From positions 1-37,688 of the forward strand of contig DSBO01000048.1 in NCBI GenBank assembly GCA_011046015.1: DNA of 37,688 bases. Reading direction: 5' to 3'. The notes under the pieces were generated by a model. The model was not told where the DNA came from. It saw only the letters and a program-made list of their open reading frames with translations, and made no database searches. The number at the start of each line of letters is the position of its first letter. The first letter of the stretch is position 1. This document shows, piece by piece, positions 12,404-17,564 of this stretch. This DNA is from Thioalkalivibrio sp. (GTDB lineage Bacteria; Pseudomonadota; Gammaproteobacteria; SpSt-1174). The translations under genes were made by a program, and so were the position numbers.

Positions 12404-13072
12404 CTAGCCGAGCCGTGCCCGCAGCCAGTGGGAGACGGCCGCGATCTCCTCGGCGCAGACGCTGTGCCCCATCGGGTAGTCGTGCGCCTCCAGCGCAAAT
12501 CCCCTGTCCTTCAGCCAGTTGCGCGCCTGGTGCCCGATGCTGATGGGGATGATCTCGTCGTGATGGCCATGTGCCATGAACACGGGCAGGCCGCGACTGG
12601 CAAGGCCCATGCGCGCCTCCAGCTCCTCGGCCAGGGGCAGATAGGTCGAAAGTGCCAGCACGCCGCCGAGCCGTTCCCGATAGCCGATGCCTGCGTGCAG
12701 CGCGATCACTCCGCCCTGCGAGAAGCCCGCCACGATGATACGTTCGGCCTGAATACCCCCCTCGCGCTGTGCGTCGATGAGGGCGGTCACGCGCTCCGTG
12801 GAGGCGCGGATGTGCTCCGCGTTTTCTCCCAGTCCGAAGTCCAGGCTCTCGAAGTCATACCAGGCGCGCATGGCCAGACCGCCGTTGATGGTCACCGGCA
12901 TGACGGGGGCATGGGGGAACAGGAAGCGGACGGACAGGTCGGGCGGCAGGTCGAGCTCGGGCACGATGGGTTCGAAGTCGTGGCCGTCCGCACCCAGCCC
13001 ATGCAGCCAGACGATACAGGCGGTCGGCTGTGTGCCGGTGTCGACGGTGAGAAATTCGAGTGATTCGGTCAT
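12404..13072 (-). CDS. Carboxylesterase/phospholipase (alpha/beta hydrolase, acyl-protein thioesterase-like)
   Basis: WLHGLGADG, PHAP, MRAWYD, GFSQGG nucleophile elbow, HGHHDEII, YPMGHSV. Confidence 0.92.
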   Translation of the reverse strand: MTESLEFLTVDTGTQPTACIVWLHGLGADGHDFEPIVPELDLPPDLSVRFLFPHAPVMPVTINGGLAMRAWYDFESLDFGLGENAEHIRASTERVTALIDAQREGGIQAERIIVAGFSQGGVIALHAGIGYRERLGGVLALSTYLPLAEELEARMGLASRGLPVFMAHGHHDEIIPISIGHQARNWLKDRGFALEAHDYPMGHSVCAEEIAAVSHWLRARLG

Positions 13073-13141
13073 GGCGGAAGCACGGAGATGACGAGATATC
13101 CAGCTTACCGCGTTCCCGGAACGGGATGATAGGAGGTGGGT

Positions 13142-13170
13142 AAAAAAGGGAAAGCGCGTCCGTGCGCTTC
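13142..13170 (-). terminator. Rho-independent terminator of the soxYZ transcript
   Basis: GAAGCGC-ACGGAC-GCGCTTT followed by CCCTTTTTT on the minus strand. Confidence 0.65.
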
Positions 13171-13295
13171 AAGTCACTGCCAAAGGAAACTCGCTGAAAC
13201 GGTGTGCATCCACAGACTCGGAAACGTTCCGGGGCGAGACTTTCAATATGGGGTTTCCCTGCCCCCAAGCCACTGCCAAAGGATTCTTTGCGTAA
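13142..13295 (-). ncRNA. Structured soxZ 3' region / candidate sRNA ending in an intrinsic terminator
   Basis: Two copies of TCCTTTGGCAGTG(G/A)CTTG, each followed by a hairpin with an ANGGAN loop; the last hairpin AAGCGC-ACGGAC-GCGCTT is followed by TCCCTTTTTT. Confidence 0.4.
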
Positions 13296-13607
13296 TCAGG
13301 AAACCTTGGTTTCCACGGAATCGGTGTTGCCCTCGTTGTCGGTCCAGCTGATCTTCAGCGTATCGCCGGCCTTGGCACCGGAAAACTTGAACGACAGGTA
13401 GGGGTTCTTGGAGATGGCCGGGCCCCACAGGGCGGTGAGCACGTTGTTGCCGTTGTGCTCGGCATTCACTTCCTGGATGAAGTGGGCCGGGATCATCTTG
13501 CCGGTCTTGCTGTCTTTGCGCTGACCGGTTTCCATCGGGTGGCTGATCAGGCACTTCACGGTGGTGGACTCACCGGCGGCCTGCGCACGAACTTTAATCG
13601 AAGACAT
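13296..13607 (-). CDS. soxZ: Thiosulfate oxidation carrier complex protein SoxZ
   Basis: LISHPMETGQRKD, IPAHFI, ISKNPYLSF, WTDNEG; directly after soxY. Confidence 0.97.
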   Translation of the reverse strand: MSSIKVRAQAAGESTTVKCLISHPMETGQRKDSKTGKMIPAHFIQEVNAEHNGNNVLTALWGPAISKNPYLSFKFSGAKAGDTLKISWTDNEGNTDSVETKVS

Positions 13608-13635
13608 GTCTGGTACTCCTCTGAATTCTCAGCGA

Positions 13636-14097
13636 TTAACCGCCGCAGCCACCGATGGTGACCTTGACTTCCTTGCGCGAGCTGTACAGCTTGCCATTGG
13701 CCTTGACCATGGCGATCACGTCGGAGGTCTTGCCCATCTTGATGCGCGTGGAGACGAACGGATCGGTGTTGGCGCCGAGCATGTAGCTCGAGGTCAGCGG
13801 ATTACCATTTTCGGCGGCCAGAATGCTGATCGACTCGACACCGGAGATGCCGGTGGAGACGGTCACGGGCACGACGGCGCCGTTCTCGGCGATGTCGGGG
13901 GCCTTGATTTCGATCTCGCCATCGGCGGCCTGGTCACTGCCGGCGATGCCCTTCATGGCAGCGCTGATGGAATCGGCTTCGAAGGCTTCTTTCGGCCAGG
14001 CGGCCAGAACGGCGCGCGGGGCCACGAGACCGGCGGCAACGGCCATACCGACGGTGCCGGCGGCCAGGGTGCCTTTGAGCAGGGTTCTACGCTTCAT
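13636..14097 (-). CDS. soxY: Thiosulfate oxidation carrier protein SoxY
   Basis: Tat signal MKRRTLLK, APDIAENGAVVPV, NGNPL, TRIKMGKTS, C-terminal VKVTIGGCGG swinging arm; RBS GAGGAG. Confidence 0.98.
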   Translation of the reverse strand: MKRRTLLKGTLAAGTVGMAVAAGLVAPRAVLAAWPKEAFEADSISAAMKGIAGSDQAADGEIEIKAPDIAENGAVVPVTVSTGISGVESISILAAENGNPLTSSYMLGANTDPFVSTRIKMGKTSDVIAMVKANGKLYSSRKEVKVTIGGCGG

Positions 14098-14145: not shown

Positions 14146-14163
14146 ATACAAACACCGTGCCAA
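14146..14163 (-). promoter_or_regulatory. sigma54 (-24/-12) promoter for soxYZ
   Basis: Minus strand TTGGCACGGTGTTTGTAT versus consensus TGGCACG-N4-TTGCW; the only deviation is GT for GC at -12. Confidence 0.8.
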
Positions 14164-14225: not shown

Positions 14226-14262
14226 GTTGCAAATTGCAACGGGCGCCCGTTGCAATTTGCAG
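14226..14262. promoter_or_regulatory. Tandem enhancer (UAS) sites forming a perfect 34-bp palindrome
   Basis: TGCAAATTGCAACGGGC|GCCCGTTGCAATTTGCA (14228-14261); each half contains GTTGCA-N3-TGCA; about -90 to -126 from the predicted start. Confidence 0.7.
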
Positions 14263-14272
14263 GCGGGGTGGC

Positions 14273-15617
<1,345 letters not shown>

Positions 15618-15625
<8 letters not shown>

Positions 15626-17564
15626 TCGATTCTCCCGGGGTCTGCGGCCTGGGCGGCAGCACGATGGAAACGGTCAGGCCGCCGCGCTCGTTGTTGGCAA
15701 GTTTTATCGTACCACCATGGTGCTCGATGATGCCGAGACTCACCGACAGGCCAAGCCCGCTGCCCTTGCCCACCGGCTTGGTAGTGAAGAAGGGATCGAA
15801 CAGCTTGTCGATGATCTCGGGCGCGACGCCCGCGCCCTGGTCGCAGACGCAGATGCGGACCTTCTGTTCCTCGTCCACGCCTGCCTCGATGCGCACCTCG
15901 TCACCCGCGCCGCTCGCCTGTACCGCGTTGAGCAGCAGGTTGATCAGCACCTGCTGCAGTTGATGCGGGTCGCATTCGATGACCAGGTCGGGATCCATCT
16001 CCGACACGAATTCCACCCCCTGGTCGCGGGCCGCCTGGCTCACCAGCTGCAGTGACTGCTCGACCAGCGACTGAACGTGCGTGCGCTCGTAGTGCGGGGG
16101 CACCTGGCGAGAGAAATTGAGGATGCCGCGCACGATGCGTGAGGCGCGGTGAGCCTCGTCGACCAGCGCGCGCAGGTCTTCACGCGTTGCCCTGTCGTCC
16201 GGTGGCAGGGAACGATCGATCAGCTTGGCCAGCGTCAGGATGTTGTGCAGGGGGTTGTTGATCTCGTGCCCGATGCCCGCCGCCATCTCGCCGATGGAGG
16301 CGAGCTTGGCCGACTGCAGCAGCATGGATTCGGCCTGGTCGCGCTCCTCGCGCGCGCGTTCCAGGGTATCCGCCATGTAGTCGAAGGCGACCAGCAGTTC
16401 GTTGATCTCCTGCGTGGAGCGTACCGGCGCCAGCCGGCGGCGACGGCCGCGCGCGTAGTCGCGCAGCTGGCGCGTGAGCTGGGTGATCGGCCGGGCGATG
16501 CGACGCGCGCCGACCTGGGCCAGGACCAGGCTGGCGCCGATCGCGACCACGGCGAACAGCAGCATCCCGGCGCGTATGCGATTGAACGGCGCAGTGATGG
16601 CCGCCATGTCGACGCGTGTGGCGATCACCCAGCTCACCAGCTGGTTGGGGTAGGGGTAGTATTCGGCGTAGTAGACGCGGGTGCGTCCATCCGGCGCGTC
16701 GAAGGCCCCGTAGGGGGCGCTGCGCACGGCCTCCGTCAGGCGTCCGCCGAACTGCCCGTGAAGGTTGTCGGCCGGGGTCTTGGCCGTGCTGAAGAGCCGC
16801 CCGACCGTCTCGTCGTACAGGATCATGCCGTCGCGCTCGGGTACCTCCGGGTTCAGTTCCGCGATCAGCAGCCGCCCGTCGTAGAGTCGCGGCGAGAGTT
16901 CCAGGATCCGGTCGATCTGCACGCCCGTGGCGTTCACCGTGAGATAACCGATGGGCAGCAGCTCCGATTCGCCCGTTAGCGGCACCGCCACATCCAGCAT
17001 GGGCACGTGCCCGGAGTCGCCGTACTCGGTGTGCGAGGGCGGCTGCAGCAGGTAGTTCACCTCGCCCGGGTTCAGCGTCTGCAGCACGTACAGGAATTCG
17101 GGGTCGTCCAGCTCCTCTTCCGCATAGGGGTAGGGATCGAGTCCCATGAACGATGGCGGGGTCTCCTCGCCGTCGCGCACCTTCGCCAGCGTATTCCCGC
17201 GGTAGTCGAGCAGGCGGACGGTGCCCACGTCCTTGAGGATCAGCTGCACCTCGCCGAGAAAACCGGCCAGGTACCGGGTGCGTTGCTGGTGTTCGGCGTG
17301 CTGGTGACCGGTGAGTACGGCCCGCAGGACCGGCAGCACCTGATCCACCGAGGGCGACTGCGCCAGCGCGGCGATGACCTCGCGCTCGAAACTCAGGCGC
17401 CGGTCGAACTCCGCCACCGCGAAACTCAGGTTCGCCTGCAGGCGCTCGTCCACGTCCTTGCGGTGCAGCTGCTCGCTGTAGCCCGTGACCAGCAGCACGA
17501 TGGCCATCAGCGGCACCACGGTGGCCAGCGAGACCCAGAGAAAGATGTTGGTACGAAGGTGCAC
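15618..17564 (-). CDS. Membrane sensor histidine kinase (periplasmic Cache-like domain, HAMP, HisKA, HATPase)
   Basis: Two TM helices around a ~300-aa periplasmic region; KLASIGEMAAGIGHEINNPL, QVLINLLLNA, DQGAG, FDPFFTTK, GSGLGL; overlaps the regulator start. Confidence 0.93.

Follow-up and report, generated by a model that had tools for sequence, protein, structure and literature searches.

What fills the gap between soxZ and the esterase gene that follows it, and why does part of that gap repeat itself? We addressed this question in a 37,688-nt stretch of DNA from Thioalkalivibrio sp. (contig DSBO01000048.1; this whole stretch is hereafter the window), where both genes lie on the minus strand, separated by 223 nt. 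The gap holds two copies of an 18-nt motif (the 18-mer), each directly followed by a short hairpin. Motif and hairpin together make up the module that a first-pass annotation of the window had described, and this module is conserved: it occurs two to three times in the same soxZ-esterase spacer of a congener and of a genome from another order. We take the module to be an RNA-level element, as it is strand-specific and combines covarying stems with fixed loops and a fixed 18-mer. We designate the source genome (2.2 Mb) G000, the congener G001, and the genome of another family and order G066, in which the stretch holding the module locus is L270.

The repeated 18-mer and its hairpins

The features of the spacer, from the soxZ side to the esterase side, are as follows.

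13277 to 13290, minus strand: predicted small hairpin CAAAG-AAUC-CUUUG, which includes the first 7 nt of copy 1 of the 18-mer and appears in minimum free energy (MFE) and consensus folds
13283 to 13266, minus strand: 18-mer copy 1 (module 1), TCCTTTGGCAGTGGCTTG (UCCUUUGGCAGUGGCUUG); identical in G001 and 16/18 identical to all three G066 copies
13250 to 13265, minus strand: module-1 hairpin (hairpin 1), GGGG-CAGGGAAA-CCCC, abutting copy 1; its loop contains GGA, and it is not followed by a U run
13209 to 13230, minus strand: stretch with two further GGA motifs, within CGGAAC (13231-13226, mostly paired) and UGGAUG (13212-13207)
13187 to 13170, minus strand: 18-mer copy 2 (module 2), TCCTTTGGCAGTGACTTG (UCCUUUGGCAGUGACUUG); 17/18 identical in G001 and 17/18 identical to the G066 copies
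13170 to 13142, minus strand: intrinsic terminator (hairpin 2), GAAGCGC-ACGGAC-GCGCUUU then CCCUUUUUU, from the terminator scan; abuts copy 2

The 18-mer has the consensus TCCTTTGGCAGTG(G/A)CTTG, and its two copies stand where they were first annotated, 96 nt apart, with 17/18 letters in common. The annotated region begins at the soxZ stop and extends to the terminator. When the 223-nt spacer was shuffled with its dinucleotide content kept, a direct repeat of at least 18 nt with at most one mismatch never arose (0/2000; the longest reached 15). Likeness between the copies ends sharply at the 18-mer borders, and their flanks are no more alike than chance (243/500 and 293/500 shuffles score at least equal). 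Tandem duplication of a 96-nt unit is ruled out by this shuffle-level flank similarity. The repeat alone is a weak signal, because 101 loci in the whole genome hold local repeats of like quality (17/18), mainly in coding sequence or tandem-repeat families. We also considered a coding role. The frame is open past the soxZ stop and the copies are in frame (96 nt being 32 codons), yet 1-nt indels in G001 break every frame and shift the spacing to 97 nt, so that the element is non-coding.

Hairpin 2 spans 13170-13151, with 7 bp, of which 4 are G-C pairs, and a hexaloop C-ACGGAC-G that matches CANGGANG; UUUCCCUUUUUU follows. Its predicted energy is -9.6 kcal/mol, with the loop GGA unpaired at P > 0.94 in the predicted ensemble. 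It is the sole terminator-like site on the minus strand of the spacer in the terminator scan, in agreement with its earlier description as an ACGGAC hexaloop leading into a U tract. In G001 its loop changes from ACGGAC to AUGGAC, at the N position only, and a G.U pair becomes A-U. Hairpin 1, which had been taken for a second ANGGAN hexaloop, has a different shape in the window: the fifth pair is a C.A mismatch, leaving a 4-bp stem (13265-13262 / 13253-13250) and an 8-nt loop. Its counterpart in G001, GGGGC-CAGGGAU-GCCCC, has one pair more, gained through two changes, and the predicted probability that its GGA is unpaired is 0.95-0.98 there, versus 0.41-0.89 in the window. A G+C-rich stem with a U run, the form of an intrinsic terminator, is present in window module 2 and in all three modules of G066 and absent from window module 1. 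The two GGA motifs previously reported between the copies are in place, at 13230-13228 (predicted base-paired) and 13211-13209. The small CAAAG-AAUC-CUUUG hairpin is identical in sequence in G001 and hence offers no covariation.

We rejected two other folds. Long-range pairing of copy 2 with the region 3' of hairpin 1 showed no compensatory change, and G001 has 4-5 substitutions there. An anti-terminator pairing of UCCUU with AGGGA is the MFE structure of the G066 modules, but its probability is ~0 in each of the four G000 and G001 modules.

The spacer is conserved far above neutral. Among 41 related genomes compared, only G001 has a homologous spacer, identical at 199/221 positions (90%) and retaining both 18-mers, with several 1-nt indels. 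By comparison, identity at third codon positions is 64-84% in five neighbouring genes (1117/1580 when pooled; Fisher p = 8e-11 versus the spacer) and 208/257 in soxYZ alone (p = 0.006). The spacer on the other side of soxYZ, between a response regulator gene and soxY, is identical to G001 at 118/175 positions (67%).

Seven modules, from G000, G001 and G066, could be aligned. The alignment contains 17 invariant letters of the 18-mer and three different stem sequences; in the loop, A, G, G and A are identical in 7/7 modules while both N positions of A-N-G-G-A-N vary. We tested covariation on the five modules with hexaloops, in which 25/25 cells of the 5-bp stem are paired and 2/5 stem pairs are changed on both sides (U-A/A-U; C-G/U-A/U.G). 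The covariation score was reached by 8/500 shuffles. This support is modest because the sequences are few and mutually related.

Loop and closing pair spell CANGGANG in 6/7 modules, 5/7 having it as a C-G-closed hexaloop. Excerpts of PMC6849547 give CANGGANG as the published Rsm/CsrA binding motif, quoted with the Schubert 2007 consensus, and cross-linking and immunoprecipitation data, in a part of PMC5207318, place CsrA on A(N)GGA within apical loops. The first-pass assignment of the ANGGAN loops to CsrA/RsmA agrees, at the level of motif, with this published sequence. GGA lies in the loop of 13/352 terminator-like hairpins of G000. Hairpins with a CANGGANG hexaloop and a T-rich tail number five in that genome, and module 2 has the longest stem among them. 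The csrA gene is present in G000, G001, G003 and G066, and hfq is present in G000.

Recurrence and distribution of the module

In G066, the end of soxZ is followed by three tandem modules with periods of 60 and 63 nt and then by an orthologue of the esterase gene, whose product shares 52% protein identity with that of the window. Each module consists of GAAUCCUUUGGCAGUGACUUU, a hairpin GUGC-AGGGA(A/C)-GC(A/G)C with a stem of 4-5 bp, and U6-7, and its 18-mer is 17/18 identical to window copy 2. The two loci are colinear (59.5% nucleotide identity); beyond the colinear alignment the modules are the only local matches, and the rest of the spacer is unalignable. The esterase orthologue lies 3' of the modules in all three carrier genomes (G000, G001 and G066).

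Known carriers are few: three genomes of the ~450 searched genome-wide, one further open reading frame (ORF) and a few metagenomic contigs, all of them uncultivated. A covariance model built from five modules recovered two held-out ones at 36.8 and 41.6 bits (E = 6e-8 and 3e-9). Searched with the model, 151 genomes gave G066 only, 80 other soxZ loci gave nothing at E < 0.1, and the 47 genomes behind 50 of those loci gave two weak, terminator-only matches. The 80 soxZ loci come from named-species genomes, and BLAST likewise found no module in them. A pattern search over 401 genomes of the class had identified G066, with its three copies; from ~130 near-matches listed we picked 20 others with an intact core, and 0/20 had soxZ upstream or the hairpin, so that we regard them as chance. 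The match in G402 was discarded, being located within an open reading frame.

The further ORF, P0001, is a spurious 64-aa frame on a Joint Genome Institute (JGI) metagenome contig that encodes two modules in two frames beside G066-like sequence. Its modules are inferred from protein only, and the search of the protein collection with spurious module-spanning ORFs gave only this lineage. In two sludge DNA runs, G001-like contigs bridge the spacer. A search of sequencing runs yielded no run with more than a tenth of the query words. A metagenome scan with a 15-base pattern gave at least 118 loci, all chance single matches without soxZ or a hairpin; the pattern was too loose and the scan is uninformative on distribution.

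One RNA data set touches the locus. A contig from soil RNA library X16, ~89% identical, aligns from soxZ to 13143, 1-2 bases off the end of the U run, and carries the letters of the window at six sites (in the spacer and just after it) where the G001-like sludge contigs differ. These runs are available as assembled contigs, which cannot show RNA ends or sizes. X16 has no cover over 13035-13128, and we draw no inference from this gap.

Two other sulfur-oxidiser genomes have terminators with AGGGAN hexaloops and no 18-mer, GGGC-AGGGAG-GCCC and GGGC-AGGGAC-GCCC (L306 1500-1560 and L305 1500-1545, both minus strand); UCCUUGGGCAG precedes one of them.

Copies of the 18-mer outside the spacer are rare. 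G000 has one more match, with two mismatches, within a glcF-like coding sequence, and G001 has its own two copies only; degenerate matches are no commoner than for a reversed control pattern. The many genome-wide copies expected of a dispersed repeat, such as repetitive extragenic palindromes (REP) or miniature inverted-repeat transposable elements (MITE), are therefore not seen, contrary to an outcome that the first-pass annotation had allowed for. Its statement that no description of the element was known has held: neither the window region nor that of G066 matched a relevant Rfam family, and we found no description of a sox-linked small RNA (sRNA) in the literature searched. The papers found for soxYZ or soxZ together with small RNA contained incidental mentions only, judging by titles and abstract openings.

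The surrounding locus

The neighbouring features on the minus strand, in order of decreasing coordinate, are listed here.

15618 to 17564, minus strand: HAMP histidine kinase gene (Pfam HisKA, HATPase_c, HAMP), upstream of soxY
14273 to 15625, minus strand: NtrC-type response regulator gene (Pfam Sigma54_activat, Response_reg, HTH_8), upstream of soxY
14228 to 14261, minus strand: two dyads TGCAA-N-TTGCA, read from the sequence as a candidate enhancer for the adjacent sigma-54 activator
14148 to 14162, minus strand: sigma-54-type promoter candidate of soxYZ, TGGCAC-GGTGT-TTGT, 1 mismatch to consensus
13636 to 14097, minus strand: soxY, 153 aa, product ending in GGCGG (Pfam PF13501 SoxY, E = 3.3e-32)
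13296 to 13607, minus strand: soxZ, 103 aa, stop codon TGA at 13298-13296 (Pfam PF08770 SoxZ, E = 2.1e-41)
13073 to 13141, minus strand: post-terminator spacer up to the esterase start, delimited by reading and by comparison with G001 and G066
12404 to 13072, minus strand: esterase gene, 222 aa, of the Abhydrolase_2 phospholipase/carboxylesterase family (Pfam PF02230, E = 1.3e-46)

The sigma-54 consensus is TGGCAC-N5-TTGC, its GG and GC elements being exactly one helical turn apart. The dyads lie ~70-100 nt 5' of the soxY promoter candidate, directly after the NtrC-type regulator gene. Promoter candidate and dyads are kept in G001, though the spacer there is only 67% identical and the sequence between the dyads varies. 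The window soxYZ thus appears to be driven by a sigma-54 promoter beside an NtrC-type two-component system. It is a stand-alone extra copy, and this arrangement suggests that it is controlled by a dedicated two-component system. G001 also has a second soxZ. There, and likewise in G002, G003 and those named relatives that we read, a soxA-like gene lies directly 3' of soxZ. We read the region 3' of soxZ in 15/80 named-species loci; the soxA-like gene is directly next in 14, and in the fifteenth the stretch stops at a likely frame break within a soxA-like gene.

An Abhydrolase_2 esterase 3' of soxYZ is found in two orders (window 12404-13072; L270 513-1202, minus strand). Abhydrolase_2 is a family that includes acyl-protein thioesterases, and the pairing of soxYZ with the esterase, kept in two orders, suggests that the esterase may be functionally connected to the sulfur that SoxY carries on its cysteine. 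The promoter scan showed no sigma-70-like promoter of the esterase's own. Between terminator and esterase, a 40-nt block (13101-13140, minus strand) is identical in G001 and was not found in G066. It contains a perfect palindrome, CGTTCC-G-GGAACG, and may be an operator or leader hairpin of the esterase.

A proposed CsrA-type element and its rivals

How might such an element work? We hypothesize that the stretch is the 3' untranslated end of the soxYZ transcript, with modules of two parts: (i) an invariant single-stranded segment of ~18 nt, (GAA)UCCUUUGGCAGUGRCUU, and (ii) a short hairpin abutting that segment, in which the loop together with its closing pair reads CANGGANG, the sequence that CsrA/Rsm proteins recognize. 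In the window, hairpin 2 and its U run would end the transcript; in G066, U runs follow all three hairpins. Besides terminating, the hairpins would offer docking sites to CsrA or to another protein of the same loop preference. Transcription of soxYZ would then titrate the CsrA-type protein, or that protein would set termination and so the read-through into the esterase gene. A second surface for recognition would be provided by the 18-mer, as a base-pairing seed or as a protein site. Transcription as one unit from the sigma-54 promoter, binding of CsrA, action in trans and an effect on the esterase are all steps that we infer. We tentatively favour this reading over its rivals: a modular element of the 3' untranslated region (3' UTR), in which the hairpins combine termination with CsrA-type binding and the 18-mer offers a second surface.

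Known CsrA-binding RNAs resemble the element in part. CsrB, RsmY, RsmZ and McaS share with it the A-N-GGA-N loop with a C-G closing pair (CANGGANG) and further GGA motifs in linkers, 19-50 nt apart, and the carriers encode CsrA. McaS, moreover, joins a few GGA sites with Hfq-type base pairing. This RNA is named in a part of PMC5207318. In contrast to CsrB, RsmY and RsmZ, the element matches none of RF00018, RF00166 or RF00195, would lie in an mRNA 3' end behind a putative sigma-54 promoter and not in a free-standing gene, and contains an invariant 18-mer without counterpart in those RNAs.

Several results weigh against a CsrA-type element. With regard to structure, window module 1 departs from the pattern, with its 4-bp stem, 8-nt loop, partly paired GGA and missing U run, and the 3' stretch of the window folds no better than shuffles (z = +0.87). 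Covariation of soxZ 3' regions, named in the first-pass annotation as a check, is found in the five-module stems and not between the congeners, where RNAalifold on G000 and G001 gave no compensatory pair; carriers are so few that the covariation rests on very few independent events. With regard to binding sites, known CsrA sponges have many more of them (5-22, versus 2-3 loop sites here). The GGA count of the window is ordinary (4 in 154 nt, two of them in loops; 18% of genome windows reach this number), and that of G066 (6 in 183 nt) was reached by 587/5000 shuffles. Only ANGGA stands out in G066 (5 copies; 11/5000 shuffles), and these copies are paralogous, not independent. Searching the whole genome with RF00018, RF00166 and RF00195 gave no match over the cut-off; the best (23.5 bits versus a cut-off of 57) is merely a terminator, and sub-threshold RsmY matches, which we set aside, are likewise terminators only. 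The 18-mer itself contains no GGA, and a CsrA model offers no account of it. As for the RNA library, it may also contain DNA, and the alignment is ambiguous as to whether the X16 contig ends at 13143 or continues with unlike sequence.

The 18-mer is central if, instead, the modules are processed from the soxYZ transcript as an Hfq-type 3'-UTR sRNA that pairs in trans through it, the GGA loops being secondary; the UCCUUU with which the 18-mer begins could mask Shine-Dalgarno sequences. No other part is as well conserved across orders as the 18-mer, which abuts the terminator (13170-13142), and an R-N-W-U-U site, which we take to be the preference of RNase E, lies just 5' of copy 2. A seed, a shared terminator and a U run are the known architecture of 3'-UTR sRNAs (PMC5207318, in part). 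Like CpxQ, SroC, DapZ, MicL and NarS, as portrayed in excerpts of PMC5207318 and PMC7038943, the element lies between a stop codon and the Rho-independent terminator of the mRNA; also shared with these RNAs, as far as those excerpts go, are a most conserved stretch directly 5' of the terminator hairpin, a U tail and the presence of hfq, here in G000. It differs from them in that the unit of seed and hairpin is in tandem, 2-3 times, in that the terminator loops are conserved, and in that the target search gave no conserved target.

That search bears on the suggestion, also made in the first-pass annotation, that UCCUU seeds pairing with ribosome-binding sites, and it did not bear the suggestion out. 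In G000 the best predicted target lies at the ribosome-binding site of a gene for a PhnD-like binding protein, where an 11-nt perfect match extends to 18 nt at -30.7 kcal/mol, an energy equalled by 1/44 composition-matched shuffles. The top-50 target energies are not better than those of shuffles (8/44). A 1-nt insertion weakens the PhnD-like site in G001, to -26.9 kcal/mol. In G066 the site was not found, and of the three other TGCCAAAGGA sites of that genome none is placed where a PhnD-like gene could plausibly start. The 18-mers, furthermore, are ~60% paired in predicted ensembles, and the invariant loop letters would be left unexplained. We regard a pure Hfq-type sRNA as unlikely. A further reading is a new RNA family, with modules in tandem at the 3' end of a stand-alone, sigma-54-driven soxYZ operon, each joining an 18-nt seed to a CsrA-type GGA hairpin that is also a terminator; transcription of soxYZ would release or expose small RNAs that titrate CsrA and pair with other mRNAs as well. 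This reading seems to us quite doubtful.

The start region of the PhnD-like gene is of interest for its own layout (G000:C41:11020-11070; L260 720-770). A hairpin CCGGCC-GGGACA-GGCCGG is followed by CUGCCAAAGGA over the ribosome-binding site, giving two GGA motifs in a CsrA-target-like arrangement in addition to the complementarity to the 18-mer. The gene stands alone, and the region is kept in G001 except for the 1-nt insertion.

Alternatively, the modules could be plain punctuation, tandem terminators that insulate highly expressed soxYZ from the esterase gene and set their ratio without any regulator, the 18-mer and loops being kept by descent or by the needs of terminator efficiency only. 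Hairpin 2 has the form of a terminator, each of the three hairpins of G066 leads into a U run, the scan found no sigma-70-like promoter for the esterase, which makes control by read-through plausible, and the AGGGAN-hexaloop terminators of the two other sulfur oxidisers do without the 18-mer. Tandem or intra-operon terminators such as the rrn dual terminators also consist of successive hairpins with U runs; these close a highly expressed unit and are separated by a short conserved sequence. sRNAs between dual rrn terminators interact with Hfq and CsrA in vitro, according to a part of PMC8144298. In contrast to the rrn terminators, as far as that part goes, the units described here repeat one module and precede a protein gene, and there is no sequence relation. 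Descent alone, moreover, cannot account for 17/18 retained positions across orders, given that identity has fallen to 52% in the neighbouring protein and the rest of the spacer is unalignable. Terminator loops normally vary, and GGA is in few of those of this genome (13/352). Window module 1 has lost its U run yet retains 18-mer and loop. Punctuation by itself is thus quite unlikely.

We also considered a DNA-level site, in which the 18-mer would be a protein site or a repeated sigma-54 promoter (-24 TGGCA...) upstream of the esterase. TTGGCA within the 18-mer resembles the -24 element of the soxY promoter candidate, and every G066 module reads TGGCAG-N5-TTGT, which is spaced correctly for sigma-54 and shares its -12 variant with the soxY promoter candidate. 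The modules point at the esterase, and a sigma-54 activator is encoded nearby. This fit is not common to all carriers, because only the G066 modules have the N5 spacing: the window and G001, with TGGCAG-N4-TTGG and TGGCAG-N4-TTGA, have the wrong spacing to any GC, and the window modules have no GC at -12. The 18-mer bears no relation to TGCAA-N-TTGCA, the likely dyads of the activator, the covarying stems around a fixed loop would be unexplained, and a promoter here would start transcription within the hairpin that precedes the T run. Altogether, a DNA-level site is very unlikely.

A mobile or repeated DNA remnant (REP-like, or a tRNA 3'-end attachment-site duplication) or a chance repeat is scarcely credible: dispersed repeat families do exist in the genome, and GAAUCC-UUU-GGCAGUG-R can be written, in what is presumably the standard numbering, as the end of a tRNA T-loop, the T-stem and the acceptor strand with discriminator, but there are only two copies each in G000 and G001 with degenerate copies at the reversed-control level, ARAGORN finds 0 tRNA genes in window 12900-13700 and in L270, 0/401 genomes have a tRNA-like conserved match, 0/2000 shuffles reach the repeat length, and insertion debris is argued against because the element keeps the same position between the same gene pair in two orders.

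To our knowledge, post-transcriptional control in chemolithotrophic sulfur oxidisers is almost unknown. The module is unusual in that 18-mer and hairpin loop are kept across orders while their surroundings drift, and it joins features of 3'-UTR sRNAs and of CsrA-binding hairpins in a repeated unit. If CsrA binding, or a seed in the 18-mer, is real, the element would link expression of the sulfur carrier to global regulation. If it is a new family, sulfur oxidation would be tied to global post-transcriptional control and a thioesterase-like gene would be gated. The element also bears on the conserved pairing of soxYZ with an esterase of the acyl-protein-thioesterase family. Its immediate impact is limited, because its distribution is narrow and its carriers are all uncultivated.

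Two further observations concern G000 as a whole. The genome has a tandem repeat family with a period of ~83-97 nt and words like AATCGCGCCTCGCAGC and GGTAGGAGCG, at many loci and contig ends (C1:12376-12700, C1:21147, C4:36640, C29:749-1600, several in C74, and C90, C104 and C141), and arrays based on a 7-nt unit (GACTTGC) stand at many contig ends; these tandem repeats and arrays probably break the assembly. In addition, the clpP-clpX spacer (G000:C93:2690-2860, plus strand; L261 691-861) contains 9 GGA motifs, 4 of them ANGGA, on the strand opposite the genes. This spacer is 92-93% conserved in G001 and G002, and could be a GGA-rich antisense RNA or simply a CU-rich sense spacer.

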